Source: Ruditapes philippinarum
Lineage: Eukaryota
Length of the DNA stretch: 64,000 nt
Assembly: GCF_026571515.1 (NCBI RefSeq)
Contig: NW_026862094.1
Coordinates: forward strand, 62,001 to 126,000
Reading direction: 5' to 3'
The notes below the pieces were generated by a model. The model ran no database searches. It was not told the DNA's origin and saw only the letters and a program-made list of their open reading frames with translations. Position numbers and translations under genes: made by a program. Positions 6,788 through 64,000 of this stretch are shown in pieces; position 1 is the first letter of the stretch, and each line of letters begins with the position of its first letter.

Positions 6788-9700
6788 TTATTCAAGAAAA
6801 CTGACTACTGATTTAACTATTTTCCCTGTCTTAACTTCTTTTGCAGTAACAACTATTTCTGTCCCTCCAAACGCAAAAGATACTTCAAGTTGATTATTCG
6901 TCGCATCATCTGTACCAGATAAGTTTAATGTGACTCTGCCAATAACATGACAGTCTTTGTCTGTAGTATACCTTGGATTTTCAAGTTTTGATGCACATAT
7001 ATCCCATTTTACTGTCCTTTGATCTCGATACTGTGGAACAAACAATTTCGTGCGTTGAGACTCTCCAGTTTTAACTAATTCTCCTCTAGTCACGTGTTTA
7101 AAGAAAATATCTTTACAACGCACTCCGTTATCAGTGACGACACGCTTCTCTATTGGATGTGCACCTGGAATGAATTCAGCACTCCCTGAAACACCATATG
7201 TATATTTCACAATTCTCTCTGAAATAACAGGCGGATAATATCCATACAAAACTGCACCTTTCAGCACTGCAGTCGAAGCTTCTACTGGTACAACAACAGG
7301 AATGTCGGGAAATTCAGTTTTAACAGCTTGTTGCAGAAGGATACATTCAGAGAAGCCACCTACCATTAATATGCAGGAAAGTGTTTCTCCCTGCATTTTC
7401 TCAATTATTTTTTTGATTTCATGTATTGCCTTTAATGTTGCCAGTTTGAAAAAATTGCTGAAAAAGTGTGATGTGAAAGTTATCTTGTCCCTTTTCAGAG
7501 TGATTTCATTGCCAGTATCTATCTCTCTGAAAGCATCATCTAAACTTTTAGTTTTTATTATTCTTTTCAAAATCGAGCTACGTTTGTTTGATTCATATAT
7601 CCCTTTAAAACTATGCGGAAATCTCATATTTACATGATCTTGTTCTTTAGGGTTAAACGATTTCTTTTTGGATTCAAATTCACCCATTAAATACAACCAA
7701 TCATCAGTTTCTATTCGTTTAAACTGCTCATACTTTTCATCAGATAGAGTGGTTCTCAAGAATTTTTCGAACTCCTTATTCACTGCATTTCCGCCGTGTA
7801 CATTCCCACTTGCGGTCACTATTTGTTTTACAGTTTTCGATGAGGCGACTTCATGTACTGTTAAATCTACTGTTCCGCCTGAAGAGAAATTCTTCTAGTT
7901 AAATAAATTTGAGAAACAAAATTATGAGATTTAATTAAAGATACAAATTACAATTTCTTATCAACATTCCAAAACAGAAATTATTGTGTTATCTATAGAA
8001 AGGGCAAATATGTGTTTGATTGTGTCTTTATTTAAACATTCAACGGTGCTTATCACTTGGAGAAATTAACACTGAATATTGAAAAACAATTGTGAAGGTA
8101 GCAAAAAGTAAACAAAATACTTAACCACTATATTCGTACCAATTGCCAAGCGCAAGACAAATGCAAAAAATCACTCAGCTAAATGGCATATTAGTATTCA
8201 TTTAGAAACTGTAGCAGGCCACTAAAAGGAGGCATACCCATTAAAAAAAAACAACAATAAATAGTGTGGCTCAGTGGCCCTTTTTAAAGGAAAATAATAT
8301 TCAAATTTGAATTAACCTTTTTGTAATATATATAACCAAGTGGCATGGCTAAATCATTTTCTTCGTCTCTCGAAATAGATACATGTAGAATGCTAATCCA
8401 TTTTGTAAATGATTAATACGCTACGCACCCCACTTTTGCTTGAATTAAAAAAAATATAAACTTTTTTTTTATTTACCTCCAGCATCCAGCACGAGGTATT
8501 TACTTCCAATCTTCAGGGAAGATAAAGCAACACCCGAGTCTCTATTAATAGCACACACATCAAGTTGCCGACAATAAACTGACGCAGCTTCTGGCTCAAG
8601 AGCTATAATTATACTGTCTGGTAATAATCCTGCCTAAAACAAATAAAATCTGAATAAAATAGCGTAGGTTAAAGTAAATCGTGACATTTGACTCGTAAAT
8701 CTATATACATTGTATAGTTTTAATTTTTTGGTTAAAAATCTTGAAAAGAGGACACCACTTGGGAACAATATAAACAGTTGCATAAAAGTGAAAATTGCAT
8801 TCTTTGGTTAAGTCTGTTCATGAGAGATAATGAAAAGTGCAATTACTATTTTGAATTATTTATAGTAACTCTCCGTCCATACTTCACCTTTGTGTCTACT
8901 CCAGATTTTGTTTGCTGTCCTTGCCGGTGGTCATTTGTTACTGTTTTTTGTTGAGAGATGTTGTCAATGAATGCCAACCTTTTTGGTTGATCTTTGTTTT
9001 AATTTTTATTCACATTTTAACCCATGGCCTAAAGTGGCATTATGTCCATCCAAATGTGTGAATGGTGAGTGTAGGAAAATGTCATTCAAGTCATTATTTT
9101 GTTACACACAAACTATCAATAAACCGCGTGACCAATGGTAATTTCTCTGTATAAAATTCGTAAGTTATCGGTATCGTTAAATAGAGCTAGGCAGTCTTTT
9201 TATGTCTAAAGCAGGTTTAATATTTAATCGTTATTAATCATTGGCTATTCCCCATTATAGCAGTTATTCAGCTAATAATTTAAACGAACAAATGAGCATA
9301 GTATAACCTTTATTGGTGTTCGATAATAAATACAAAAATAACTTGAATCAATGATCGACAAGGATTATGCAAATGTTAGGGTAAAATGTTAATCTTCCCA
9401 TATAGTAAACATTTTTGTTGTGAAAAGAACCTTACTTGTAATGCAGATTCTCTCATCAAATATTTTGCTTGGTCTGTCCAGATGGCAGGAACAGTAATAA
9501 CCCATCTAATATCTCCGGGTCTTATATCTTGAAATCTTCTTTTTAAATCACTGAACATATCCTCGGCTAAAAACCGAATACTGGCTGAAAATACGTTTAT
9601 TGCTGGAAGAACTCTTCCCATTTGGTCAACAAGCTTCATCCCAGTGTTCAGCGGCTGAAAAGTGTAAATTTTGACCATGCATAAATCATGATCAGACAAA

Positions 9701-12700
9701 AGGAACTTTAAGAATGTCTGTGCATACGGCTGCAACTTATGAGAACAGATTGATATGTTTTTCTTATCCGCGAATTTTTCTCTACGAATTCGATGCAGAT
9801 CAAAGAGTTAACGCAATAGATAGACAGGTAGAATGAACAGTGAACATTTACAACATTGATGAATTTGAAGTATAATACATTAAAATGATATATAATGATT
9901 GAAAGGGTAAATTTGTTTTACGTGTAAATGTTGTTTTTTACCCAAGATATATGATAATGATTGACACAACAAAGGTTTGAAATGTGTTTCTTGTTTATTC
10001 TTCTCTAGTGGTTTTTTTTTACATTTGTAAGGTTGTAAAAATAAGTTTGTTTTTGTTTCTGATAAGGCCAAACTAAGAACACATTCGGTAAATTGTACGG
10101 TATATGTTACATACATCACGATACTACAAAATTGCAAGTAACAAAATATTAATTATACCTGGTAATATTTTCCATAGAGACCAGTTTTGAAGTTTTTGAA
10201 GAAGAAATATGCCTGGTGTTGTTTCTTTGTTACTAAGTCATCATATCTGCTCTCTGCCTCATACCCAAATGAGTCCAGAGTTTCACCATCTGGTTTTATC
10301 AAAGCACATGTGGATGTTTTTCCTGTTGAATTTGAGGTGTATGTTGAGTACCAAGACTTTACATATATGGTAGAGTTTCTGTCTAGATCTGTCTTGGAAG
10401 CAAATGCCCATCCAGAATAGGAAGTTCCTAAATCAATCGCCGCAAAGATAATCTTACTGTCAGCCTGAATATATCGTAATACAACATTATGAACAATTTC
10501 CATTTTCTTTTAATTACTTTAAACGTACATTATTCTTTTTTGTTGTGGAGGGGGTGCATATAAATTTTTACTATTCCATAATATTTCCATTTAGAGTATA
10601 CATTAAGAGAAATCAATATCATGAAAACAGTACTTATTGACTTTGTTCTAGTTTGAAATAAAGTATGTAGATGTTATAATAAACAGCCTTCTTCCACCTT
10701 TACGGAGAGAATCTATACCCAAACCATCAAGCATCAATTAGTCCAGTATTCCCTTTTTAAATGCATCTTTGTGAAGCGAAGCTATAATGCATAGTTGATA
10801 ATTTGTTTAGTTGGGTATTCTAGTTTTCCTGTGTTAGACTGTCCTAAAAGCATCTTCAGAAATAAGCAACAATCTGGTAGAACTATTTTCAATCTAAATG
10901 CAATTTGAAAATGCTACTTGTGTTAAAAAGAATTGCTTGTATCCGAAAGTAACTGCTGGATTAAACATTATAGTGTCAGGATGTTACCAAGAGACTTAAA
11001 GTACTTTTTATGGCGCCCTGAAAGTCTTATTTGTTGAGTTCTTGCACTTTGTTAATTGTCATACTTTATTTTTGTCCGAGCCATTTCTCATGAACTATAA
11101 AAACTATGGACTATAAAACGTAAAAGATCTCACTGAGCAAAAATGCCTTGCACAATAACTGGTACTCTGTACTTCATGATTTTTGAGTTATTACCCTTTG
11201 TTAATTTCCATGCTTTATTTTTGTCCGCACCAATTCTCTTACACTTTAAAAGCTATTGGCTTGAAACTTCATAGGATTGTCGATCTTGTTGAGAAGAAGT
11301 GCAGTACATAAGAACTTGAACACTGCACTTATAATTTTTTATATTTATTCCATATCAGTCACTTTAATTTACGTTCTTTATCATTTAATATAAATAAGGA
11401 ATTTTGTCAATAAATACATTCTTTAAAATCAAGTTTAGGGTTAAGGTGAGTTGATATCATTGTTAATTGTTTTTTGTACATACTTGTCGCGCATATAATT
11501 AGTTATTTAATGAAAATTACAAAACGTGACAAGATACGACGAGCGTATGTATTTTTTTACCAATGTTATCATCTGATTTGAAGTATCAATTTATCTGAAG
11601 TCTTAAAGTGTCAAAAACATTGTAGACATACAATGACAAAACCATGTCTCTTCAAAATAGGAAAAATAAAAAAGCTCCGATAACTTATCAATCGATTCAC
11701 GCGATAAACCAGGAAGTTAAGAAACGTTAAAAGATTAAGCACATTAATATCAACCGGTTGTTGCACATAGATGGAGTGGGCAAGGTGGTCCACGAAAGTT
11801 GTACTTTACTAGAGCATAAAGCTGAGAGAAGAATGGTGTGTAATTAAATACTAGTAGATTGCCTTGAATCATCTGACGGAGAGGTTTTATCTTATAATGA
11901 ATTTATTTATAGGTTCAATATCCAATAACATTTCTTTTTTTATATATATCGTTTTAGGAATGATTGTTTCAATTGAAAGTTTTTAAAGAAATAAGATATA
12001 AGCTCTAATATTGTACTAACAATGGCCGAGAATTTCAACATTACCTCAAAGATATCGTACTAAGTGTAAATTTCGTAAAACCATTTTCATGTACATTGAG
12101 TACACAACAAATTCAACCCGGAAGTACTGTTATCAGGGTTATTTCTGTGCTGGATATGTCTACATGTGTCTCTAGTTTTAAAAGAGTAAAATGTATATTT
12201 ATGGCCACTTTAACATGTAATAAAAGTTTTTTTATACTTTACTTTGATCTAAAACTGTGTTAACTTAATGTAAATAAGCACCTCAGTCATTACTTAATTT
12301 TAGATCTAAAGTGTTGCAATTTAAAATGATTTATTTAAAACATTAGTGTATATTAGTGTATATGTCCTTATCTCACAAGTGTATAATATACTGCGGATTA
12401 CATAATTTTTCTCTATCATTAAAATGACATATTTCAAAGACATATTTTGTCTTAAATGTACAAATGCTGCACTGGCTATATGCATAATTATAGCTTATGA
12501 CTTATAAATGAAAAAAAAATGAAATTTTTCTTTTTTCACACTTCCTACATGATCAACATGTTTTTCTGACTTACAGTGTACACACAAATTATCATTGACC
12601 AAATGATTCAAAATTATATTTTAAAGATTTAACGATTCATGATACTACAATATAACAGCTTATAGTTTTAGCTTTAAAACAAGTATATCGCCGGATACAG

Positions 12701-14589: not shown

Positions 14590-16567
14590 CACGGGGGAGG
14601 AAGTGTTACACGAAGGATGGAGTTCTTATGATAACTTGTTCAGGAGTTCTTGTGATAACTGTCACGGAGTTCGTCGGAAAACATCTGTATATACTACAAA
14701 AACACTCGTCAAAAATGGTTATTTTCATCTTTCCAAAATGAGTTTTAGGTGCTAAATTAAACTTTAATGATTAAGCTTGTCTTACATCTTGTATTATGTG
14801 TCAAAAACTAATTCACAGACCATTTTTACGTCCTCTTGCTTCAAATCTGGTAGTTTTGAGTAAAATTTCCAAATTATTTGCCAATTCACAAGTATTGACC
14901 TGTTTATTTCTGGTCTTCATCCTTGCCATACATAATTACCTAATTATAGGGCAAAATTGCAAACATAAAGCACCGGCTAACAGATTTATACCCGATTTTT
15001 CAAATGTCCCGGAGTTCTTGTGATAACTCTGAAGATGTCACAGAGTTCTTATGATAACTTTTGTTATTGGCAGTGTGTTTCTTGCGCTAAATCACGGCAC
15101 GTTTTAGCGTTTTTTTATTATTCATTGAGATTGTAAATCATTATGAAATGTAGTACGCTCATCCTTTGCGCAAAAAATAGGATATATAATGTTGGTTTTG
15201 AGTGAATTTTAGCTCAAGAGATATTATTTTTTATACCCGCGTTTCTTTTTCATAGTATTTTTTTGTTTGACGCAGATTTCGTAGACTGGAAAAAGGATTT
15301 ATGTACTGGTTTCCTAGCTGTTTCTGGCCCCTAGCAGTTTTCTGGCCTTTATCATTTTCATCCAGGCATACAGTCTTTTTTTTCTCTCAGTTAAGCATCT
15401 TTGTTACTGCATCAATCTGAGAAACATTTGTTTTCTATGTAAAACATCAGTTATAATAGTACAGCGATTAATATGTTTCAAAGTTTTGTCTGTTGTTTTA
15501 AGTTACATTAGAGAACTTGCGACACTTACAAGCAACACCTGTGGAATTCTAGTTTGAATGCCCGTGCACAATAACTGAAATCCCATTCCAGGTAAATCTG
15601 GAACCTGGAGGGACAGTTCAAATTTTTTCGAGAGATCGGTAGTTAGAGCCAACCGCAGTTGAGTTTTTATCATGTATCGTACTTTTTAGGACATAAGTGG
15701 AAATCATCCTGGTTATATACTTATTTATTATGGTATAAAATGATACAAATTACTTAGCCCTTAGGTAAGGGAAGCATGCCTATATATTGTCTGCTTAAGA
15801 AAGATGGTTGCTTAAACTGAGAACAACGTGTACGTTTTGATACATTTTTGTTTTGTGGTTTAAGCCATTATACTGCTGAGTATCAGTGGCCGCTGGTTCA
15901 ATGTTACTGTAGATGATAGCCTATGATAGCCTATCACCTATTTATCCTTTGAAGACACTTAAGACCAACGTTTTATCCACATTTTTGTGCAAAGGATGAT
16001 CGTACTGCATTACATAATGATTTACAATCTTATTGAATGATAATAAACGCCAAAACGTGCCGTGATTTAGCGCAAGAAACACACTGCCAATAACAAAAGT
16101 TATCATAAGAACTCTGTGACATTTTCAGAGTTATCACAAGAACTCCGGGACATTTGAAAAATCGGGTATAAATCTGTTAGCCAGTGCTTTATGTTTGCAA
16201 TTTTGCATTATAATTAGGTAATTATGTATGGCAAGGATGAAGACCAGAAATAAACCGGTCAATACTTGTGAATTGGCAAATGATTTGGAAATTTTACTCA
16301 AAACTACCAGATTTGAAGCAGGAGGCGATGAAAAATAGCCTGTGAATTAGTTTTTGACACATAATACAAGATGTAAGACAAGCTTAATCATTAAAGTTTA
16401 ATTTAGCACCTACACTCATTTTGGAAAGATGAAAATAACCATTTTTGACGAGTGTTTTTGTAGTATATACAGATGTTTTCCGACGAACTCCGTGACAGTT
16501 ATCACAAGAACTCCTGAACAAGTTATCATAAGAACTCCATCCTTCGTGTAACACTTCCGCCCCCGTG
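14590..16567. mobile_element. Foldback non-autonomous DNA transposon, ~600-bp inverted arms, 5-bp TSD ATACA
   Basis: ATACA|CACGGGGGAGGAAGTG ... CACTTCCGCCCCCGTG|ATACA. Arms ~14590-15205 and ~15956-16567. Motif GAGTTCTT(A/G)TGATAACT occurs four times per arm. No transposase ORF. Confidence 0.85.
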
Positions 16568-31319: not shown

Positions 31320-34300
31320 TTAGGGCGCAACTAAAAATAACATACGACAATGTTTAAAGGTCATACAAAAGTTGTGTTATTCATTAGCATAGTTAATATG
31401 ATTTTAGGGCAGACGCATTCTTTTACTTGAGGAACATACGCCTCTTTTCATGGAATACTAGTAGTACTGACGTGTCACATTGAAGGTTCTATGATAACTG
31501 TCATATGAACACATATGCAGATATTTAATTTATCTATTTATCAAATTTACCATATGCAGGGGGCGTGGACGGAAACTTGCAATTGTCATTACTGTCCACG
31601 AACAAGCATAATCGAAATGAGCCTGCAACATTTTCAATTTTCTTGTTTTGTGCGTTCTACATGGATTCTAAATTTCTCTCTAATTAACATCGGTAGAGCG
31701 TGTTTGTGCGAATTAATGCAACATTAAACGTACAACCGCTTCACAACTTGATCTTACCTTAGCATTTGAGATTTATTCAAATTACACCAGCTATACCCAT
31801 TATGATTTCTTTGTAAATATATTCAAAAGGTTTCTTACTTGTAGGAGAACGTTGACAGAAATAGAATTTTAGACTAGCACAGTAGTAGTCATTCCATTTC
31901 TTAGTGGCTGACATTTCAACACAATCTTCCTCTCCAGTTCCTGCGCCATTATTTGGTTCATTTGTGTTCCAATTTGTATAACTGACAGGTTGTTGCGATC
32001 CGTCCCATTTGAATGTATTTTCAGTTTCAAGATCATTCAATCCGATCCAAGCTGTGTCACCATTTCCTTAAAAATGTTTTTATGTATTTATTTAGAAACT
32101 CTTATTAACTTACAGCTAGAAGTCCTTTGTCAACAACTTTTAAAATAAAATCGTTCGTACTTGAGCTTTGCAGATTTATAGTCATCATTCAAAAAAAAAA
32201 TCTGAGTTATTGCCTCACCTTTCAATGTGTCAAGATAGTTGTTAACAGCTTCGCTGTCGGCTTGCGCAAGAGTACCACCGTCTTGAGCGCATTTGGTCTA
32301 GAAAATAAATACTTAAATGAATTATCGTCAACAAATTTTAAGGTTAGTAGTATCATGTTATTTAAAGAAATATTGTTTCCAGAGTGTTACAATATATAAT
32401 CGTATAAAATGTAACATAACAGGGACTTCACACGTAAACTTTTATTGTTGACGTCATTACAGTCATTATATTCATGTCAACATACTCTTAACTGTCAACG
32501 ATTTTGTAAAGTGTTCCTGTCATATGTAAACTTTGGCTACTTACCTTTAGTATTTGAAGCATAATATATATAACATTAAATTTGGAAGGATAATTTGAAA
32601 TACTGATCAAACAAAAGATGAACAAGATGTAATATTTTCATCAAACATAAATACATATTAATATTGTCGTAAGCACAATAAATTATGAATTAGAAACGTC
32701 CATGTTTAAATATCTGGGGTGGGGGTTATCAATGACATAAATCAATGGGAAAACATTGTAATAACTAGTTAGTGGCTTCTTTATTGTGCCACCAATACAA
32801 AAATATTATTTGATTTCCATACAAAATACTAAATCACTATAAATGTTCGTATTCTTAAAACATCAAAAGCAAAAGTAATCGTACAGGCAAGTTGCCAATG
32901 AGTTATGTTTTGGAAAAAATAACTTAACATCAAACATAGAATGCTTTCGGGTAATATCAGCTTTTCAGAGGCATATGCGGCATTAAGAATTTATGCAGAA
33001 AAAAGATAATGGTATTGACAATGTAGCATTTATTTTAAATGTAAGTATAAACATAATTGTAACGTACTGAAGTGATATAAAATTAAGATGCAATTCATTA
33101 AATAACGATAATAACCTATTTAATTATACCAGCCTGTCCGGGTATTACTTCAATGCACACAAACATATATTAGCCGTGTCACGACAAAACCAACATAGTG
33201 CGTTTGCGACCAGCATAGATCCAGACCAGCCCGCGCATCCGCGCAGTCTGATCAGGATCCATGCTGTTCGCTATCAGTTTCTCTACTTGTAATAGGGTTT
33301 GTAAGCGAACAGCATGGATCCATATCTGACTGCAGGTGCGCAGGCTGGTCTGGAGCCATGCTGGTCGCAAACGCACTATGTGGTTTTGTCGTGACACGGC
33401 TCATATTATTATAAACGAGAATCTAGACAGTAGCTAATACATCTGTGTGATATCGTAGATCAGAAGAATTAAAATTTGCCATATACGAGTAAATGATTTA
33501 TGTGTTACTTTTGCGGTCGACCAGTTCACTGTCTCCCCATTTTTGAATATATAACAACGACCATTTGACAAGCTCCAACCACTAGGACATGATTCTACAA
33601 TGAGGAGGGAAACAAATCATAAGATTGGTGTTTAATAAATTTATGCCCTCTTTGTATCACCTTTTTTTTATAAATGTATCAGAAATTTGTACATGATTAT
33701 TAAAAACTAGCATTGTAAAATGTTTGCAATTTTTGAAGATAATTACACGATTCAAAATCACTAACTGACGGTCCGTCGCTATTTTCCCCGCATCATGAAA
33801 TCCTTGAAAATATCATTTCATATTAAATGTATCTAACATTTGTGACGTTTTTCGTTAAAGACAGTGGAAGATCATTTTTAGCAACAACAAAGTATAAAAA
33901 CATGTCAATACAAAGCAAACTAAAATATAAAAAAGATTATCAATAACACGAGAACACACATGTATACATATATATGTAAAATAAAAGACAGCCATTGATC
34001 AAAGAAGTCACTCAAAGGTGCACCGCATCCTTTCTGTCTTCTTCTCCCTGTCTGACTCTTTGTCTTGTGAAGCAAATCAATTTTCGAAATTGATTAATAA
34101 TTTACATACAAGGACCATTCGGAACATGGTGCATATTTTGTGATCGAACATTTCCTTATTGTCCTTATTGTCCAGCAATAAATTGCTATATTCCTTATAA
34201 TACTTACGCTCACAATTACTGCCTGCAAATTGGCTAGTACAGGTACATGTATAACTGCCAGATTGACTTGTGCACGTGCCTCCATTCTTACAAGGGCTTT

Positions 34301-47616: not shown

Positions 47617-47792
47617 TTAACATATAGTAAAATCTGTTGACCAGTTACACTAACAGTGAAAACTGTTGACCAACTAGATATCTAGGAAAATATATGTTAT
47701 TTTGCCGTGAATTTCTTAGTTGTATCGTAATGTAATTAAATACAATATATTCTACATCTCGCAAACCAGAACAACTAAAATGTAAAAGAAAC

Positions 47793-49900
47793 CAAGGGGC
47801 AGGACGTGAAGTGGTTGCACACTTGGTTCAAGCGAGCGAATTGGTTGCAAACTTGACAAAATGGCGAACACGGCTTGATTTTTTTAAACGGGTGAACGAA
47901 TTATTGCCAGACAAGTGGGTTTCTTTGTTATTTTGTAGTTCATTAGTATGTCTATTCCATAATGCAATATATATGCCACACTCGGTTAAAGGTTTCAGCA
48001 TCCTAGATTCTGTTTTGACGAAGTTATTGAAGATATAAACTGATCATGTAGATATTTTAAAATTTGACATATGACTGTTCTGGTCGGGTTTTCTCCTTAT
48101 TTATTCGAATTTGTAAGTTTTGAACTGCATTTAACAATAACAAAATATATTTCTGTCAATGCGGTACAAATGGTTTTTGTTCGCAAGTCCGAAGATAACG
48201 TGCAATACACAAAAATATCTTGTTCAAGCAGACTTATACTTCAAGCATTTTAGGTTGCAAACTTTTGTGTTAATATTGTGGCATGCATATTTTAGCGAGG
48301 AATAACTAATCATTTTTTCAAAAATAATTAGCAATATTAAGGCAATTATACCCGCTCATCTTATAAGAAATATATATACAAATTGTGCACGCGTGCAGAT
48401 ATATCCTAACACAGGGTCTTTCAAATAGATATAAAACACAATACAGTGTATGCTAAATTGTTCAGTTGTGTTTTTTCTCCTCGATATACTTCTTTTCTTT
48501 TTACAAAGTCATAGGACTTTTTTTATATCTTGGCATGACTAACTGTAAAGGAAAAGAAGAAAAAATGGCAACAAACAGCTTCCATTATTGTTCTTTTTTT
48601 GAGATTTGAAATGAATTTGATTATATAGTAGATAAAAACTATATTAACATTGACCCAATGGCATTCTTTAAAATGTTCCTTATTATTGACCAATCGAAAC
48701 ATCTTCCAAATTCCATAACTCGAACAATGACTTCAAGTAGTTTTGTCACGTATAAGTCAATGTAAATAAACAATCGTATATCATTTATATTATGAAGTAA
48801 TAATCAAAATCATCTTTAGAATACCAATTGACATAATTAGGATGTACCTTAAATCCGAAATATTGTAAACAAGCATATCATTTTCACTTTTGGTTTGTGA
48901 AAATATTTTAAGTGCATTTACATACTTTATGTCTAAAGCAACTACTGATCTTTACATACGAAACAAACAAATTAATATTTCTTGTGGTTTTGATAAACTT
49001 TGGACATTTTTTCGAGTAACATCGTGTGTGTGCACATGTCCTTATGTTTATGATGAAAATAATTCACTTACATACAACAGTACTTTCACATACGTTTGTT
49101 TTGTATGTAGTTTTCATTTGCATTTTACATATGATGATAGATTTTAGATTTGAAATACCAATAAATATTTTTCTATATGCTATTATTTTGTTTGCAGGCT
49201 TTTACTGATGATTATAGTATTGAACTGAGAACCATGTAATTTGAAACAAAAAGTGCATAATTGTTGTAAAAGAAGAAAGTATAAATAACATTTATAACAA
49301 AAACAAGTAACAGAACATAAATTATGTCAATAATTGCCATTGAAAATTGGTTAATAAATATAACCTTCTACACTCCTTTTGAAAAGTTTTACTATGGATT
49401 TCAATAGAATAAGAATAAGTTTGCAACCAAAAATGCTTGAAGTATAAGTCTGCAACCAAAATGTGCTTGAACAAGATATTTTTGTGTATTGAACGTTATC
49501 TTCGGACTTGCAAACTAAACTATTTGTACAGCATTGACAGAAACATATTTTGTTATTGTTAAATGCAGTTCAAAACTTACAAATTCGAATAAATTAGGAG
49601 AAAAAACGACAAGAACAGTCTTATGTCAAATTTCAAAATATCTACATGATCAGTTTATATCTACAATATCTTCGTCAAAACAGAATTTAGGATGCTGAAA
49701 CCTTTAACCGTGTAAGGCATATATATTACATTGTGGAATAGACATACTTATGAACGTCAAAATATGAAAGAAACCCACTCGCCTGGCAATAATTCGTTCA
49801 CCCGTTTCGAAAAATCACGCCGTGTTCGCCATTTTGTCAAGTTTGCAACCAATTCGCTCGCTTGAACCAAGTGTGCTACCACTTCACGACCTGCCCCTTG
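47793..49900. mobile_element. Second foldback non-autonomous DNA transposon, ~470-bp inverted arms, 5-bp TSD GAAAC
   Basis: GAAAC|CAAGGGGCAGGACGTGAAGTG ... CACTTCACGACCTGCCCCTTG|GAAAC. Arms ~47793-48263 and ~49417-49900. Confidence 0.85.
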
Positions 49901-50184
49901 GAAACTATTTAAGTGTTTTTGTCGTATTTTCTTCTTTTTCTATTTAGTCATGCCAGTTAAACGTACAGTAGAGTCTGCTGACCAGTTAAACATGTAGAAG
50001 AATCTGCTGACAAGTTAAACGTACAGTGAAAATAGCTGACCACTTCTTTAGATATACAGAGAAAATTCTGTTTAGACGTACATTTCTATTTTTCACACTG
50101 TTAGTAAATATAATAAATTAACAATAGTATATGATTTATGATGGTGTGCCGTTTTCAATCATGCCGTTTTGAACCAGGGATTAA

Positions 50185-50490
50185 TTATGACGTCATTTAA
50201 TCCTAATCCTTGATAATCCTAATCCCCGAAACAATGGTTTTATTGAAAAAACTAAACAGGATTAATCTCTACTTATGATTATTCAATCATCTTAAACAAT
50301 GGGCATTAAAATCTTAAACAATGGGCATTGAAATATTAAACAATGGGCATTGAAATATTAAACTATACGTCATTTAATCCTAATCCGAGATAATCATAAT
50401 CGCCCGAAATAATGGTTGTATTGAAAATCGTAACAGGATTAATCTTTATTTATTATTATCCAATCGTCTTAAACAATGGGCATTGAAATG
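50185..50490. repeat. ~180-bp imperfect direct duplication with an internal ~21-bp tandem, upstream of the Polinton genes
   Basis: ACGTCATTTAATCCTAATCC at ~50190 and ~50367; TTAAACAATGGGCATT four times. Confidence 0.8.
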
Positions 50491-50737
50491 TAATCATTTC
50501 TTAAAGAATGGAGAATTGAAATGTAATTATAAGAAAGGATTCTATTTCAATGCACATTGTTTAAGGTATGGTTTAGGTAATCCATACTTTCAAGTGTATT
50601 GTTAAGATAAAATAGCCGGATTAGACAGACTGGTGTATTGAAATGATTGAAGAGCTGATCCTTTTTCGCACTTAGAACAGAAAAGAAATTAACAGATAAA
50701 CATTGACTGATATAGGTACATCTTTAATGATATTATA

Positions 50738-51148
50738 ATGAACATGGCTGCAAACGAAATTATATCACCCAGTGAGGCCGAAGAAGATCTGTCTCTCAGT
50801 ATTGAAGACAGTGAATTCGCTAGACCGCTTACTACAAAATATGTCGAAGTTTCAAGTTTAAATGGTACTAAATCCAGCGATGACTGCATGGTGTGCGCCC
50901 AGAGTATCCCGAAGAATCGATTTACCTTCCTTGCACAGATTATTGCAATCTACGGTATTATCATTGTGGCAGCAGTGAATCTCTCTGTTCGTCCGGACGG
51001 GCCTAATAAAGAACTTTGGGTTGCGTTGTTAGCCTCGGCTCTAGGTTGTGTTCTTCCGGCACCGGGGCTGAAGTATAGGAAGCCGGTGCAATCTATATCA
51101 AGCGGTTGGTTGTCGTCAGAGAGAAAAAATGAGAGAGACGGGCAATGA
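50738..51148 (+). CDS. Polinton small membrane protein (two hydrophobic segments), 136 aa
   Basis: FLAQIIAIYGIIIVAAVNLS and LWVALLASALGCVLPAP; overlaps the integrase start by 20 nt. Confidence 0.75.
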   Translation: MNMAANEIISPSEAEEDLSLSIEDSEFARPLTTKYVEVSSLNGTKSSDDCMVCAQSIPKNRFTFLAQIIAIYGIIIVAAVNLSVRPDGPNKELWVALLASALGCVLPAPGLKYRKPVQSISSGWLSSERKNERDGQ

Positions 51149-52274
51149 AACTAAACTGGAATACCTTAAACGTATTTACACCGACCCTTCGCACCCGGCC
51201 AGTTTCGGTGGGCGGCAACGATTGAAAAGGGAAGCAGACAGAGAAGGAAAATTCCATATCAGCAATAAAGAAATAGTTGAGTTTTTAGAATCACAGGATA
51301 CTTACAGCACGACCAGGAGAGTTCACAGGCGGTTCAAAAGAAACAGAATAAGAGTGAGCGGTATTCACATGCAATATGATATGGATTTATGCGACATGAT
51401 GAAAATGAGGCGCTTCCGGTACAACAAGGGAACCAGATATCTTCTCACTGTCATTGATGTATTTAGCAGGTATGCATTCGTAAGGCCTCTGCGCTCTAAG
51501 ACAGGACAAGCAGTGGCCAGTGCTCTAGAAGACATTCTGACCTCGGGCCCGAAACCGGCTCGTTGCAGATCGGACAGGGGCATGGAGTTCCGATGCAAGC
51601 CCGTGACAGACCTTCTAATGCGCCTAGGGATTAAACAGTATTTCAGTGCGTCCGCCTTGAAGTGTCAGCCTGTGGAGCGTTTTAATCAAACTCTGAAAGG
51701 CGCTATATACAAGTGGTGCTACGAGAACAGATCGTTCTCGTATGTTCCTGTGCTGGAAATGTTGGTGCACAGTTACAATCACCGCGTGCATTCATCACTA
51801 TTTGGACTCAGTCCAAGCGAGGTTTCAGAGTCAAACCAAGCGAGGCTCTGGAATTTGATGTACGTAGAAAATGCTAGTAGCAGTAAGAGTGGTGAGCGGC
51901 GAAAAGTCAGATTGTTTAAATACAGTGTAGGAGATCTGGTAAGGGTCAGCTTGGCTAAGCGTACATTTGAAAGATCTTACAACCAAAAATTCACATCTCA
52001 GATCTACAGAATACGAGGGCGGGTCTACCGTGATAACTTGCCAGTGTATTATCTGATGGACCTCGAAGAAAAACCAATAGAATCAACTTATTATGAAGCG
52101 GAACTGCAACGAGTGCGGAAGAATCTTGACAACATACAGGAATGGGAAATTGAAAAAATACTCAAGACGAAAAAATCAGGAAAGGGGCAGTTGGTGCTAG
52201 TTCGATACCGCGGCCTTGGACCAAGCTTCGACAGGTGGATATTGAAGTCTTCAATAAGCAGTAATCGTAAATGA
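51129..52274 (+). CDS. Polinton retroviral-like (rve) integrase with C-terminal chromodomain, 381 aa
   Basis: YTDPSHPASFGG start; DDE triad in DMDLCDM / SDRGMEF / VERFNQTLK; IDVFSRYA; chromodomain WEIEKILK...VRYRG...FDRWI. Confidence 0.95.
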   Translation: MRETGNETKLEYLKRIYTDPSHPASFGGRQRLKREADREGKFHISNKEIVEFLESQDTYSTTRRVHRRFKRNRIRVSGIHMQYDMDLCDMMKMRRFRYNKGTRYLLTVIDVFSRYAFVRPLRSKTGQAVASALEDILTSGPKPARCRSDRGMEFRCKPVTDLLMRLGIKQYFSASALKCQPVERFNQTLKGAIYKWCYENRSFSYVPVLEMLVHSYNHRVHSSLFGLSPSEVSESNQARLWNLMYVENASSSKSGERRKVRLFKYSVGDLVRVSLAKRTFERSYNQKFTSQIYRIRGRVYRDNLPVYYLMDLEEKPIESTYYEAELQRVRKNLDNIQEWEIEKILKTKKSGKGQLVLVRYRGLGPSFDRWILKSSISSNRK

Positions 52275-52311
52275 TGATATTCATGATGTAATGACTAATT
52301 AATGAACAGTG

Positions 52312-52776
52312 ATGGAGCAGTTCCATGTTGACATAAACAGTAAAGACTGTATTCAGTTGTATCCTCTTAATAATGGCTGCGAATTCCGAGTGGTAATGGA
52401 CGAAAGTCTTGTATTGAAAAACGGCAAAAGGTGGTCCGTCGCATTGGTCGGGTTGACAGTGAATTGTGACCATGACGACATGCAACTTAATGGACGGGAA
52501 TTGTACGTATGTTCAAACATTGTGGACTTTTCAGTGGTCGGGGGCAAAAAGGTTCAGCTATTGAGAAAGATTTGCCTGGGGGACGGGGTACGAACTGCAG
52601 AGGGGGGGCGCATGTTTTCTGTTGACACTATTGAAAATTGTTGCTTTTACAAAAGAGTTTATGGTCATGAGATAAAATGCATTCACATTTATAGTCTTTC
52701 TGCAACAGGCAAGAGAGCTACAGCACTGATAGATTGTACAGTAGGCGTAACTTTACATTTTAAATGCTCCAATTAG
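52312..52776 (+). CDS. Polinton minor capsid protein (penton), 154 aa
   Basis: INS..C..LYP.N...EFRV, WSVAL, LYVCSNIV.FSVVGG...QLLR and terminal TLHFK match Polinton minor-capsid motifs; lies between integrase and major capsid. Confidence 0.8.
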   Translation: MEQFHVDINSKDCIQLYPLNNGCEFRVVMDESLVLKNGKRWSVALVGLTVNCDHDDMQLNGRELYVCSNIVDFSVVGGKKVQLLRKICLGDGVRTAEGGRMFSVDTIENCCFYKRVYGHEIKCIHIYSLSATGKRATALIDCTVGVTLHFKCSN

Positions 52777-52900: not shown

Positions 52901-53353
52901 ATGGATACTAGAGGTGAACAATCCCGACTTCTGTACATCCCGGATTTCCAGGCTTGGGAAAGGATATATCAGAGCAAAGTTCCACGTCGTCCATTGTCAG
53001 AAGGAAAAAGGAGTACTGTGCATGTAAGAAATCCTGCAGACGTGAAACTTCGTTTCGTGTCACCTGTTGAAGAGACGGTTGATCAAGCCGAGAGTGAAAT
53101 CAGTTCAAAATCAAAGGCCGACTTTCGAGCTAAAAAAAGAAAAATTCAAGATACAGAAAGTCTGCCGAAGCAGCTGAGTGTTAAAGACGTAGTCCGGGCA
53201 TCTACTTCTACTGCTACCACTAGCTCTACTTCATTACAAAAGCAGAAAAGAAAAAAGCACAGACAGGAACAAGGAGTGAAGAAAATCGGTGTAAAAGACT
53301 CTAAGAAATTTAGTTACAGGACACTCAACGATATATTCAGTAAGTCGGGATAA
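52901..53353 (+). CDS. Polinton basic Lys/Arg-rich protein (putative core/DNA-binding), 150 aa
   Basis: YIPD..AW, VSPVE..VDQAESE, basic tracts and C-terminal DIF. Stop overlaps the capsid ATG (TAATG). Confidence 0.7.
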   Translation: MDTRGEQSRLLYIPDFQAWERIYQSKVPRRPLSEGKRSTVHVRNPADVKLRFVSPVEETVDQAESEISSKSKADFRAKKRKIQDTESLPKQLSVKDVVRASTSTATTSSTSLQKQKRKKHRQEQGVKKIGVKDSKKFSYRTLNDIFSKSG

Positions 53354-55107
53354 TGTCGGTTATTTCTCCACTAAGCGGTAGTGAAAGTGCGCCTGAAGCC
53401 CTGGATATATTCCGTATGTACCCGAACCAAGTCGCCGTACAGAATTACTATCAAGAAGACATCAGACCAGTAAGTCAGTTTGGTGGCATTGACGCTCCGC
53501 TGGAGTTCGAAACATCTCTTCAAGGAGATAGCTATTGTGAATTACCGTCTTCCCGACTATTTGTAAGAGCTCAAATTCTCAATGCAGACGGTACTGCATG
53601 CAGCGAGGATGTTAAAATATCTCCATGTGATCTGTTTTTCCATTCAATGTTCAAAAAGGTTGACATATACATGAATAGAACGCTTGTTTCCAGTTCCGGA
53701 GACTTATACCCCTACAAAAGCTTTTTCAACAAGTTATTTCGATGTGGCGTGAACACTGGCAATGGAACACTGTCAGAGAGTGAACTATTTTCTGGAAATG
53801 ATTCGGGTTTTCCGGCAGAAACAAATCCTAACGCAGGTAAGTTGCTGTATGCAACATGTGTCCATTTATTACTGATTATTACTGATTTCTTATGAATGAA
53901 TTAAATTATTTTATTGTTTATCGTTTTTGGTATTGATAAATAAACTTGACAAGTTAATAAAGAAGTAAAATAGAGCTATCAAAAAGGAAACANNNNNNNN
54001 NNNNNNNNNNNNNNNNNNNNNNNNNNNNNNNNNNNNNNNNNNNNNNNNNNNNNNNNNNNNNNNNNNNNNNNNNNNNNNNNNNNNNNNNNNNNNNNNNNNN
54101 NNNNNNNNNNNNNNNNNNNNNNNNNNNNNNNGCTATGCTATTCTATTCTATGCTATGAAATGCTTTGCTATGCTATGCCATGCCATGCCTTGCTATGCTC
54201 AAACTATTATTAATTTTATTTGCCTTCCTTTACTGCAGGTAATTTCTCATTGTTCCAGCGATACAAAGTCGGTCGTGGTTCTAAGCCATTTGACATGGTA
54301 GGGCTTCCACTGAATGACCTAATGGAACTTGATCGTTACCTTATCAATGGCGTTCATTTGAGAATCGTGCTTCATCGGAACAGCGCAGAGTTTTGTCTAA
54401 TAAGCGATGAAGACAATAATAATGGTGGATATCAAGTAAAACTACTCGACTGTTACCTTAGAATACTGAAATGTAAACCGAATCCAGCCATACTGGTCGC
54501 TCATAGTAAGGTACACAAGGGGCTCACTGCCAAGTATCCCTACATAAGAACCGAAACGAAAAGTGCTAATATTGCTAGCGGTCAGAGTGTGTTTTCATGG
54601 GATCATATTAACGCTTCCTACCTGCCAAAGTTGGTTATAGTTTCTTTTGCAGATAGCGCTGCAGTGCTGGGCTCGCTGAAATTGAACCCATTTAACATGG
54701 AACACTTTGATGTTCGCCAAATAAGTCTTTATGTAAATGGTATACCTTGTTCAGGGTGCCCAATCAATGTAAACTACAACCAAGATCTGACAGCGGAAGT
54801 GTTCGACCGGATGTACGGATTTGGCAAAGGGCGGCCATTATACACAGCAATGGGTGGTATCAGCGGCAAAGACCGTGGGAATGTCGGTATAAACAGAGCT
54901 GACCTAAAAAATGGAAGGGCTATATACGTATTCGATCTTGCTCCAATTATAGAAGAGCCATTTCATTTTGAGCTACAACACAGTGGAACGCTATCAATGC
55001 ACGTGAAATTTGGCAGCTCTCTTGCGCAAAATGTTGCTTGTATTTTTTATGCTGAATATGATGCTTTGATGGAAATTGATGAAACGCGTGGCGTGAAAAT
55101 TGTTTAA
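53353..55107 (+). CDS. Polinton major capsid protein (double jelly-roll), 450 aa, 2 exons
   Basis: Exons 53353-53836 and 54239-55107 with a phase-1 GTAAGT...TGCAG intron. Motifs LDIF..P.Q, PLEF, HSMF..VD, YPYK, RYLINGV.LR, LPK.V.V.F, NPFN..HFD, FDL.P, G.L...V.F, YAEY..L.EI. Confidence 0.9.
53993..54200. other. Assembly gap (53993-54131) and GCTAT-type microsatellite inside the capsid intron
   Basis: N run followed by GCTAT/GCCAT pentamers. Confidence 0.95.
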
Positions 55108-56743: not shown

Positions 56744-58220
56744 ATGGAAAAGCTTTATATTTTGATTAGCCTTACGGCGCTATTTGCATTTAGCAGTAGT
56801 TTATGTGTGACAGAAGATGAAGGGAAAGATGGTATTGATTTGAGGTGTAGTTCCAGGTGGAGTGGAGAAGGTTCTAAAATCCGTCGTCTTATAGTACACA
56901 GCTGGGACGGCTCCTGCCACTTTCCGGAAGGGGGCCTTTTGACGCTTTACGGCGCAGATCAGGATTGTTTCACCTGTTCGAAGTCTATCCATGAGCGAAT
57001 GATGGTTAACGGAGAGAAATGTACAGTCGCTGTAAGTCACACATTCTTTTTTTATTTTAAATTTTACGATGAAATGTTAAGTGTTAAATCCTTGAAAATG
57101 ATATTTACTTTTTATCTCCCCCGAAAAGTGCATGAAAGGATCCAGCCCTGCATGTTTCTGTGCAGCGTCTCCGATATTAAAATACAATGTATGAAACCTC
57201 ATTTGTTCGGTAAATTCTTCTTTTTGCATTGCCTTCTGCTCGAACTGTCTGTATATTTTTAGCAGAAAACACGTTTGATAGATCCCTGGTATTATAATTA
57301 TATTTAATTAACAAAAGACATTTATCTGCAGGTTCCTACAGCAAGGTCAGAATCGAAAATTTCCGGAAGCAGCAGAACCACAACTGGGTCAATAGATTTC
57401 ACGACAGAGCTCTACGAGGCAGTCTGGCAGGTAAAAGGTAGCATCCATGGCACCACAACTACAGCAGCTGAAACCTATAGTGCATCCTCAAGTTTGCAAG
57501 GTACTTACATAATATTTGTTTTATTTACGCCTTTAAAACTAATTATATAATTTGCAGTTTGAATAAACTATTATTTTAAATGCGGATGCGTGCATTTTTA
57601 TGTACAGCACAACTTTTTAACTTCCCTTTCCAACTTGAGGTCATATTTATTCGATTTTTTTTTTTGTTGTTGAAAATTTAACTATTTGTTGCCATTTGTG
57701 TTATAAGAATGTAATGCACCTAAATTATAGATTAATTCTGTTGAGATTTGATCATTCTGGTCAGGATTGCACTGTATTTTCAACCTTTTTACAGACAGTG
57801 GTTCGATCCCCAGATGGACATATGGGCTGTTGTCAACTTTAGCGGTAACTGTCCTGGTCTTATTCGTGCTCCTAGTACTGTTGCTATTGCGTTATAGGAG
57901 ACAACGGGCGTATATTTGCTGTAAACCAAGAACAAGTCCAAGTGTAAGCATGGAATCTGTTATGATATATCCGTTGCCGACATTACAACTTTAATATTTG
58001 TAAATTTACAGAACTATGCATATTGGTGACAGTCGCACTGGTTGTAAAATTTCTGAAGGGTTTTAATTGGCAGCCTCATCCTCTCCAACAACAACAACAA
58101 CAACAACAACAACATCGTAGATTTCAAGGAGGTAGAGAGCTTGTGATTAATCAACCCCATAGGGCACTACGACCACAGAGGGCTCGGAGGCAAGTCCAAA
58201 GATTACAAATATCGTGGTAA
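56744..58220 (+). CDS. Spliced type I membrane protein inside the Polinton region, unknown family
   Basis: Exons 56744-57031 (signal peptide, 6 Cys), 57332-57500 (Ser/Thr-rich), 57795-57943 (transmembrane, RYRR, CC), probable 58074-58220 (polyQ, Arg-rich). Phases 0/1/0 fit; last exon ambiguous. Confidence 0.7.
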
Positions 58221-59784: not shown

Positions 59785-60516
59785 CTACAACGAGAATTCG
59801 CCGTCCCCCGAATAACACTCTTTCAACAGTCTAAAAACTTCCTTGCTCTGATTTGGCCTGTCAATTTCAAAAGCGCAGTCATATTCTTTTCTTATTTTCG
59901 TTATCCAGAATATGCTACTGTCTGTCACATAATGCAATCTCTTGCAAGTCAGTTTAAAATGGAACAAATCAGTCATTTTAAGGTGATGTGCAATTTTTTG
60001 CAGAATAACGTCTGGCAGTCATAAAAGGAACACATCATCTGAACCTTGGGTTGTGTCCATGTCACTGTCCTCACTTGACCACCAGTCACTGTTTTCTTGT
60101 TCAGGCTCTTCCCAGCGCATGTCCGATGACCTAGACTGGTCCTGGTTGTCTTCGTCTGCGGATTGGCCACTTTCGTCATCACTTATGACGACGGCAACAT
60201 CCGAGCAATCGGAATACCTCAGTCTCATCCTTAGCTGGCTGATTCCAGGCAGACCTGAATCAACATTTTCCTTGTTCTCGTCGGTCAGATCGATCGGCAT
60301 CAGTGCATTTCGTCCAACATTATCCTGATATAATGCCGCCTGCTCGCAGGTGTCCACAATTACCCCGATTGAAGAACATAATCGAATCAGCCCCATTTTA
60401 GAAAGTGTAACCTGAGTGCCTGAACGCACATTTATTATAGTTCCAACAGCCTTTCCGTTCACTATGTCCATTTTCAAGTAATTTTCAATATCGAGAGAAA
60501 CACAATTTGAAGCCAT
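59785..60516 (-). CDS. Accessory protein with acidic linker and C-terminal F-box, interrupted by one in-frame TGA (60021-60019)
   Basis: MASNC... 165-aa ORF continues in frame past the stop: DVFLL*LPDVILQKIAHHLKMTDLFHFKLTCKRLHYVTDSSIFW, matching the F-box consensus LP.EIL..I...L...DL.....CK.......W. Confidence 0.7.
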
Positions 60517-61878
60517 TTTTAAGTTGTTTTTTTTAATCGACCTTACACTAAAGTATATGATGTAGATTTGTGACGGTTTGATAAAAAGCAACAGATATAA
60601 AGGGTCGCTAAAACAATACAAAACAAACACATAATATACATTGTCCAATCAAAACGTAGCTGAGACGCGGCGTCTCGTGGCACGTTGTACTCGTGTCACG
60701 TTCGGTACACTGAATTGACACTGATTGTGCCAATGCTAGACAAAAGAGATAAAAGGATATAAATCACGTGGGAAAATAGTACTGACACGTTACAATTCAA
60801 TGTAGCATTCAGTACTAAATAAGATAAATGGTACCTTTTATTGGTACTAATTGAATGATCTGATTGTGCCGTTTTATGTGTTTTTTTTTGTTGTTGTTTT
60901 TCAAATTACCATTAAAAGACGGGATAAAGCTTTACTACTTACCTTGAATGAGAAAAATTTTGAGCGTTGATGTAATAATTTTAACTTTACTCAAGTGCCA
61001 CGCCTTCTCTGGCACCGCCCCTACCTAACAACGTTTGTATTAAAAAATACAAAACAAAACAAATTAAAAACAACCAAAACAAAACAAAAAAATTAAAATA
61101 AACAAGAGATGTATACGTTTCTGTAATTATTTATGTATCAAAAAGTGTTTACGGATATATATTTATATATAATTATACCTTAAAATGATATTCATAAACA
61201 GACATATCTATGAAAATCACATTCTGGTTAAGACAGACAAAAGCACTTTCAATAACATCAGTGTTGCAATTCAGTGCATACAGTATTCAATAAAAAACGG
61301 ACGTTGTCGAATGACAGATGACAACCGATTAATTAAGGAGGCTGTTTTCAACAGAATTATTGGTTTTCAGGGAAAACGGCAGTACCGGGCCTGTAGAGCC
61401 GTATTATCTTTGGAAAATGTATTAATTACAAGTTACCCCATAAGTCTTGAAAAGTGAGTAGAACTTTTTCATTTTCTTACAGGCACATTAGCTCTCGGAA
61501 TCATGTTTTTTTTGGATATATTAATAAAATGTTTCTACTGAAAGTAATTGCTATTTCAAAATCATTGTTCATTTATGAATATTTAAAGCACTCGTTTTGC
61601 AATGTTTCCAATGCTTCTTGTTTACATTTCTTACATGCATAGATCGATTTCAAGCGCTTTCTATGAATTGAAGCAAAATATGTGCATAAAAAACTCTTGA
61701 CTATTATAGTTTTAGTCTTGTTTTAATATAAACAAGCTCGATAAACATGTACTATTCATTTGTGTGCTATTTTAAATACAAGAATTAATAGGGACACATA
61801 TCATTGTAAACAAAGATAGTAATTTTGCGGATTTTGATAACGTTACATTGTCACCACTTTTCATTGTATTTCTTTGAG

Positions 61879-62904: not shown

Positions 62905-64000
62905 ATGGCAAATTCCAGCGACGAAAACGAGTTCATAAGAAACCTTCTATTCCCAGATGATGAAAACGTAACGTATGAACCAAGCTCACCGGAAGTGCGA
63001 GATCAGCTAAGAAAACTAAATGAAAAGTTACTGGATGGTTCTGTGTGTCCAAAATGTGGAAAGCAATTTTTTAATAAATCGAATTCAATAAAACACCAGA
63101 GATCGGCAGTGTGTGATAAAAAAAAGGAAAAACGCTGTCAAACTTGTAAAAAGGAGTTCAGGAAACCGTGTGAATTAAAGAGACATATGCTACAATGTGC
63201 TGCTATGACAGAGCAATGTACTTTATGCCAGAAGAAGTTTAAATCACGAAAATATCTGGACCTTCATATGCAACGGTCCCATGAGAACGCTTGTCCAATA
63301 TGTGGTGAAAATTTTGTGGACAACAGAGAACAGCTTGTTGCTCACGCAAGAAGACATTTCAAGGATGACTATCTAACACTGCCTCAAGTGAAAGCACTTA
63401 GGAAAATAACTGGTAAATCGGCGTTGCTTCCGGTGGACCGGAATAGTAATTCTAGTGATTCATCTAACGCCGTTCGTGCTTCTAGTGATCCAATTCCAGG
63501 ACCATCCGGTGCGCCGAACATGGATCCGGCCTTTCAGCAAACATCAAGACCGATACACGGAAACGCTGGTATAGAGATATCGGTTACTCCAAGTGGCACA
63601 GAAAAATATTCCCTGTTGGCGCTGTTTGACGGGAAACGACAACAAATAAGTTGGAACCTAGAGACGCATTTACAAAGGTAACACATTTTTATCATGTAAT
63701 TTATATACATCAAATATGTGTGTGTGAATTAATGTATAGCATAAATACGAACTAAATTTAAACGCATGTGATTATCAAATTTATATACATGTACACATTA
63801 TAATTATGAATATCGATATCAATTTTTTTCCGAAGCAAGAAAATATAATGCCTCTGGAGCACCCATTGAATAAAATATTCATTCAAACAGTTTATAGAAG
63901 TATATATATTTCACTTCCCTTTGCAGATGGACCAATGTGCGTTGGTATTTGAATGCAAAATGCAGGATGATTCGGTACGACAACGAAGGAAATATAAGGT
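62905..64000 (+). CDS. Zinc-finger protein, probably the N-terminus of the Polinton protein-primed DNA polymerase B; spliced, runs off the window
   Basis: Exon 62905-63677 has four C2H2/C2HC fingers. A phase-2 intron (63678-63926) joins to give LLALFDGKRQQISWNLETHLQR-WTNVRWYLNAKCRMIR, which resembles the region before the polymerase domains in Polinton pPolB. No catalytic motifs are in the window. Confidence 0.65.

Follow-up and report, generated by a model that had tools for sequence, protein, structure and literature searches.

Maverick elements, or Polintons, are characterized by terminal inverted repeats (TIRs), a 6-bp target duplication, an rve integrase and a double jelly-roll capsid in the text available for PMC8097293, PMC8502044 and 10.1101/2022.07.12.499685. 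We analysed a window of 64,000 nucleotides of Ruditapes philippinarum DNA and found an element that shares these traits with its sister copies. An A32-type ATPase in the sister copies and a large polymerase-like gene missed by Pfam extend the likeness. The published core genes differ from those found here. In the available text of PMC8097293 and 10.1101/2022.07.12.499685, Maverick core genes are intronless and introns occur in cargo genes only, whereas the clam element has one predicted intron position in its capsid gene and six in its likely polymerase gene. Our main finding is that a whole Maverick lineage is likely, as judged from its sequences, to carry introns in core genes that are usually called intron-free.

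Two other systems bear comparison with the capsid intron. Introners have been described in Maverick-like elements of dinoflagellates, where they were mostly gained after integration (10.1101/2025.03.18.643946, available text). The clam intron resembles them in lying within a Maverick-type element and in having a short flanking repeat that holds the splice dinucleotides, but it has no dispersed copies, TIRs or empty allele, and its position is old and shared. Intron gains at proto-splice sites and in Daphnia (PMC3443670 and PMC4202315, in part) offer a second likeness: an AG|GT-like site, a junction spanned by a short repeat, intron bodies that are unrelated although they share a position, and one copy shifted by 3 bases. 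The Daphnia gains are young presence/absence polymorphisms, whereas the clam introns lie in genes with near-saturated synonymous sites and no uninterrupted close relative was found. Polinton-type regions are abundant in bivalves according to 10.1101/2025.04.19.649669, the available text of which makes no statement on introns, and the text available for PMC12220804, 10.64898/2026.07.28.741278 and PMC5718144 offers no information about core-gene introns of the spliceosomal kind. In a literature lacking most subscription journals, supplements and Repbase, no description of an intron-bearing Maverick lineage in bivalves was found. Four RefSeq proteins named "F54H12.2-like," XP_060557438.1 and XP_060573598.1 from R. 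philippinarum and XP_053386485.1 and XP_053372971.1 from Mercenaria mercenaria, all span the capsid junction; they are named as uncharacterised proteins and not as Maverick capsids.

The Maverick element and its genes

By sequence, the element in the window is a Maverick/Polinton. Its likely left TIR (positions 50125 to 50694, + strand) has 85 to 99% matches on seven other contigs, including a site some 3 kb past the polymerase in sister copy C9024; no partner was found in the window's own contig, and no right end of this copy was detectable. Next to the TIR lies an rve integrase with a C-terminal chromodomain, read as a stop-to-stop frame (51072 to 52274, +; PF00665, E = 1.3e-13; chromodomain PF00385, E = 8e-4, below the cut-off). 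The minor capsid position is occupied by a 156-aa open reading frame (52306 to 52776, +) that is conserved in families B to E; it has no Pfam hit, and its look-alikes in the Atlas are unnamed viral proteins with a weak recognition score. Downstream of the capsid gene, a likely cargo gene of three exons encodes a predicted membrane protein (56745 to 57995, +), with two predicted GT-AG introns at about 57032 to 57331 and 57501 to 57794; families B and D contain pieces like it. Its product has a hydrophobic N terminus, a Cys-rich part, a Ser/Thr stretch and a transmembrane segment, and its first part has no Pfam hit.

The initial annotation had called the interrupted gene a major capsid gene, and this identity was borne out by the fold of P0006, a relative with 66% identity. 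The P0006 model, built from a 145-row alignment, reached a pLDDT of 91, and its best matches were the capsids of PBCV-1 and iridoviruses (E = 8e-16; TM = 0.55). On the strength of this model, the protein is a double jelly-roll major capsid protein. The intron breaks the protein at residue 162, in a loop of the first jelly roll and not between domains. A sequence search of the PDB with an exon-2 profile returned nothing.

Sister copies supply parts that were not detected in this copy. Intron-bearing copies B and D carry TIRs and flanking duplications (343 bp, 98% identical, duplication 6/6 in B; 393 bp, 99% identical, duplication 5/6 in D). A packaging ATPase was recognized in copy D (Pox_A32, E = 3e-6), with homologues in the B and C copies, and none was found within the 40 kb examined of the window's copy. 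Core genes are broken in the window's copy, where the polymerase is affected, and likewise in the inspected copies of families B, C and D. The adenain-like protease (PF00770) gave nothing in genome G000 and likewise nothing in 14 control genomes.

Other features were seen in the window. A 94-aa frame just upstream of the polymerase (61173 to 61454) is conserved in families B and D, and a 209-aa open reading frame with an acidic C terminus and no Pfam hit (60019 to 60648, −) resembles a segment found in families C and D. Long inverted-repeat pairs at 47792 to 49901 and 14590 to 16567 (486 bp at 90% and 616 bp at 94%) are probably nonautonomous DNA transposons. Copies of a palindromic element some 240 bp long lie at 33167, 43774 and 58735. 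Upstream of the Maverick lie exons of an Hsp70-like host gene (6791 to 10509, −), which we take to be of the HSPA12 type.

The capsid intron and its position across relatives

The capsid gene is interrupted at 53837 to 54238 (+) by 402 bp that begin with GTAAGT and end with a pyrimidine tract and TGCAG. This phase 1 GT-AG interval splits the Gly codon of an N-x-G-N-F/Y motif, has a GC content of 32% and holds six stops in the frame of exon 1. Exon 1 (53353 to 53836, +; 161 codons plus one base) is the start of the RefSeq model XP_060557438.1 from R. philippinarum (P0033; 450 aa), and exon 2 (54239 to 55107, +) is its end. The 161-aa first half and the 288-aa second half of that protein are identical to the window, and the intron boundaries are already present in this public prediction. 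The GT-AG interval agrees with the earlier proposal that splicing restores a 450-aa capsid. The sequence features of a U2 intron were found (GT donor, pyrimidine tract, YAG acceptor and exons collinear with uninterrupted relatives), and Rfam gave no match to a group I or II self-splicing intron at E values up to 1. Terminal inverted repeats were not found in the interval, just three short internal AT-rich pairs. Judged by these features, 53837 to 54238 is likely a spliceosomal intron.

The initial annotation had taken a run of N in the intron for an assembly gap. That view did not hold, since the counterpart in G000 is equal in length and free of N and has at this place a microsatellite of a 5-bp unit in about 38 copies, the tail of which is visible in the window at 54132 to 54199. 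A mis-joined gap between two elements was rejected on the same evidence. Dispersed copies of the intron, suggested by the same annotation, did not appear either: in a search that skips common words, the unique 5′ part had one match in G000, which was itself, and the microsatellite tail alone matched elsewhere.

Four sequencing runs (X5, X15, X23 and X24) were sampled at 4 to 5% each; they gave no splice joints and are uninformative on splicing either way. Runs X23 and X24, labelled RNA-Seq, are unstranded, and 68 to 69% of their placed reads continue into unlike sequence. Of 12 loose ends inspected, 10 had GATC at an end, a feature of DNA libraries made by proximity ligation. No read of run X5 could be placed, and run X15 looks genomic.

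Exon 2 had at least 67 matches in G000, and exon 1 had at least 60. Junctions were tabulated for the 10 loci at which both intron ends could be located; copies with one end or with decayed ends (L005/L013, L020/L030, L023, L024, L025 and L039) were excluded from these counts, and they have the same intron position wherever an end survives. Nine of the ten mapped copies, from families A to D, are interrupted at the same phase 1 position, and the tenth, L010, is interrupted one codon downstream. Intron ends are canonical in all five families. The introns measure 209 to 820 bp and are similar within families only, with no similarity between families. Comparisons between families gave pS values of 0.74 to 0.86 and dN values of 0.16 to 0.35; by these sequence-based estimates, both capsid halves are under purifying selection and synonymous sites are near saturation. 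The L010 intron (1287 to 1495 on C9141) has no junction repeat and may reflect sliding or an independent gain.

The more distant G000 copies, with identity of 41% or less, are uninterrupted. Scans for related loci gave three from metagenomes, one from a genome and none from viruses; each of them is distant, and those that have both halves are uninterrupted. Intronless relatives had been expected to carry a single GCAGGTAA, the junction repeat, but the uninterrupted relatives in G000 lack it and use different codons there, an outcome that the initial annotation had named as refuting its proposal. The fetched proteins numbered 273, of which 168 run across the junction. Only four of these exceed 48% identity, and all four are RefSeq eukaryotic models; the remainder have 47% or less. 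Many of the half-length protein calls are near-duplicates within clusters, and with that limit, of 35 first-half calls, 27 break off at the junction and show a donor-like read-through (G-K, G-E, G-M or G-stop) and 17 of 70 second-half calls extend upstream into an acceptor-like read-through with residues fitting NCA|G acceptors. P0031 and P0032, from another sample, provide both halves with the same read-through, and the first-half calls P0036 and P0040, which are 93% identical, read through a different donor. Prokaryote-style gene calls split this capsid into halves throughout databases. No uninterrupted close relative of the intron-bearing capsids was found among the G000 copies and the fetched proteins.

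The distribution of the intron was compared with trees of exon 2. Interrupted rows and P0082 group together (88/97), and their sister is an uninterrupted clade (100/99). P0082 is uninterrupted and lies inside the interrupted group, on a long branch and with 42% of columns. The second tree has 29 rows, covers exon 2 only and omits near-duplicates, short fragments and most of the distant rows; the interrupted label of several rows comes from protein read-through or half-length pairing and not from DNA. The hypothesis that the 17 rows with an interrupted or half-length capsid are monophyletic was not rejected (p-AU = 0.36), and no uninterrupted row falls in the 9-row group that holds families A to E in this tree or in the corresponding 21-row group of a quick tree. 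A single gain is the simplest reading of this distribution. Several capsid relatives (P0017, P0024, P0025, P0078 and L044) are filed under metagenome-assembled genomes (MAGs) of bacterial symbionts; they are probably host DNA carried into the bins.

The likely polymerase gene and its predicted introns

A large gene at the right edge of the window carries zinc-finger and endonuclease VII domains and is, from its sequence, likely a protein-primed family B polymerase. Its first exon (62907 to 63677, +) encodes C2H2 zinc fingers (zf-C2H2, E = 1.6e-11). It is followed by predicted intron P1 (63678 to 63926, +), at a position common to families A to D, and by a small exon that ends at 63998 and the start of predicted intron P2 (63927 to 64000, +, for exon and intron start together). 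The gene runs past the window, through L048 up to 4549, with predicted introns P3 to P6. Searches of Pfam, PHROGs and the PDB by sequence gave zinc-finger and endonuclease VII hits only. The Pfam miss fits the divergent Beta PolB class described in the available text of PMC8502044. The exons match an uninterrupted open reading frame of 1347 aa at 24 to 52%. They carry DFNGLY, N..GK and GDTDS, which we take to fit polymerase B motifs. In the window's copy, frameshifts and a stop disrupt the middle exons.

The likely polymerase has six predicted GT-AG intron positions, represented by 22 junctions. P1, P2, P4, P5 and P6 are common to three or four families, and P3 (L048, 1455 to 1662) was found in family A only. 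The last intron, at the Gly-Lys motif, was also found in the distant loci L070, L072 and L082 (C8727, C13927 and C12185), so that it is either very old or gained in parallel. Two of these three elements have uninterrupted capsid genes, and other elements have uninterrupted polymerase-like frames of 1100 to 1350 aa.

Since the introns of capsid and polymerase have persisted under long purifying selection and through recent rounds of transposition, the life cycle of these elements would include transcription in the nucleus and splicing by the host. Where intact elements are counted by intronless open reading frames, a spliced lineage would score as decayed or be missed. The shared introns, the family-specific P3 and the shifted intron of L010 make a compact test system for intron gain in a mobile virus-like genome.

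The junction repeat and the origin of the intron

The 8-bp repeat reported by the initial annotation is present at both junctions. GCAGGTAA stands at 53833 to 53840 (+), where it reads GCAG/GTAA across the end of exon 1 and the 5′ splice site, and again at 54235 to 54242 (+), across the 3′ splice site and the start of exon 2. A third copy lies at 57427, which brings the window to 3 copies against 1.36 expected; at least 3 were seen in 13 of 100 shuffles. The annotation's caution, that some of the match follows from splice consensus, proved sound. When the window's exon was combined with the donors and acceptors of the 22 polymerase introns, 13.4% of 484 pairings gave a repeat of at least 8 bp, so the 8-mer alone is unremarkable and is no proof of a target duplication. 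The exon side, G|GT AAY TWY, fits the donor consensus GTAAGT at five of six places. In the ten mapped copies, exact junction repeats measured 8 bp in family A, 3, 3 and 3 bp in B, 9, 4 and 4 bp in C, 5 and 5 bp in D and 0 bp in E, and GCAGGTAA itself is doubled in one of the ten. Repeats of at least 5 bp are similarly frequent at conserved and gained introns of Drosophila (26% versus 25%; PMC3443670, in part). The repeat itself is therefore a weak witness of the origin of the intron.

A longer comparison, from −4 to +8, gave junction matches at 10, 7, 11 and 9 of 12 positions in families A to D, compared with 2 to 7 at the 22 polymerase junctions. This interval was picked post hoc, after the data had been seen, and it compares four families. 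The capsid total was 37 of 48, versus 26.3 expected from the polymerase pool, a comparison in which the families are non-independent and the capsid donors are nearer consensus. With the families' own splice sites permuted, 37 compared with 31.8, which placed the observed pairing in the top 2 of 576 permutations and first of 24 joint ones. In family C, a 9-bp exact repeat, G|GTAACTAC, stands on both sides and includes a non-consensus C at donor position +5. Own-family junction similarity was rejected as a general trait, since the 21 shared polymerase junctions gave 102 versus 104 (p = 0.83). The excess is therefore special to the capsid intron or due to chance.

We consider it the best explanation, with a probability of about 0.6, that an old spliceosomal intron was gained once in an ancestor and that its repeat comes from conserved codons overlapping splice consensus. 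The Gly-Asn-Phe/Tyr codons are donor-like and the upstream Ala/Ser codons ending in CA are acceptor-like, and together they would have formed a proto-splice site at which one gain took place in the common ancestor of the families. From then on, protein constraint on the exon and splicing on the intron would have kept both sides close to the same letters, and the intron body would have turned over and taken up the microsatellite. The element would be transcribed in the host nucleus and the intron removed by the host spliceosome, and the lineage would have kept transposing with likely introns in its capsid, polymerase and cargo genes. Because diverged relatives share the codon, the repeat likely reflects codons that overlap with splice signals and not a recent insertion.

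The initial annotation had proposed gain by an insertion of the introner type, with a target duplication that provides GT and AG; we considered it as the recent arrival of an introner, or of a small DNA transposon, that duplicated 8 bp of target. The exact 8-bp repeat does carry both dinucleotides, and introners are described in dinoflagellate Maverick-like elements (10.1101/2025.03.18.643946, available text). The clam intron is single-copy apart from its microsatellite tail and lacks terminal inverted repeats, close relatives offer no empty site, and the position is common to near-saturated families and to other samples. This reading is largely refuted, and we regard it as very improbable. 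We give equally little credence to the view that the interval is unspliced, either because an insertion disabled the gene or because two elements were mis-joined. Splicing is a prediction from DNA and gene models here, and no spliced read was seen, which leaves room for that view, but G000 has no gap, both halves keep open frames that evolve under purifying selection, the ends are canonical in all five families, and a second sample repeats both halves with the same read-through (P0031 and P0032).

The pattern of junction matches bears on two further accounts. An ancient gain could have occurred once by a short local duplication, through staggered break repair, a tandem duplication or the roughly 12-bp target duplication of an insertion. 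Its footprint would have persisted because the two copies came under simultaneous constraint, and the account amounts to the initial annotation's mechanism placed much earlier. The 10, 7, 11 and 9 matches of 12 would fit this, as would the family C repeat with its +5 C, and several of the remaining mismatches sit where splicing demands them; duplication of AGGT is an accepted route of gain (PMC3443670, section 8), and an offset GAAAATTC likewise occurs at each side of the family A-only intron P3. At synonymous near-saturation, however, the weakly constrained positions +7, +8 and −4 should have been erased, the matched letters differ among families in a way that a single origin does not predict, and the polymerase introns have no such excess. 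The A at +7 of the two weak donors could reflect pairing with U1. We judge this account unlikely, although it deserves some weight. The alternative that the intron was gained or rebuilt repeatedly at one hot-spot codon, each family copying its own exon flank, appears improbable to us: no uninterrupted row falls in the tree group that holds families A to E, and five polymerase introns are common to the same families, which indicates that their ancestor was already intron-rich. Own-family pairing that ranks best jointly would agree with repeated gain, but the permutation test is post hoc and covers four families; the dissimilarity of introns among families would agree too, but it is expected at saturation. 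The one-codon offset of L010 and the different intron starts of P0036 and P0040 at 93% protein identity are further points in its favour, and parallel gains make up 48% of new Daphnia introns (PMC4202315, in part). If it were true, the element would record intron birth by local duplication repeatedly.

Intron P3 of the polymerase gene was viewed with its flanks (L048, 1448 to 1675). CAG stands at both of its junctions, and GAAAATTC follows just after each, offset by two bases. This pair could be the trace of a duplication in an intron of younger age.
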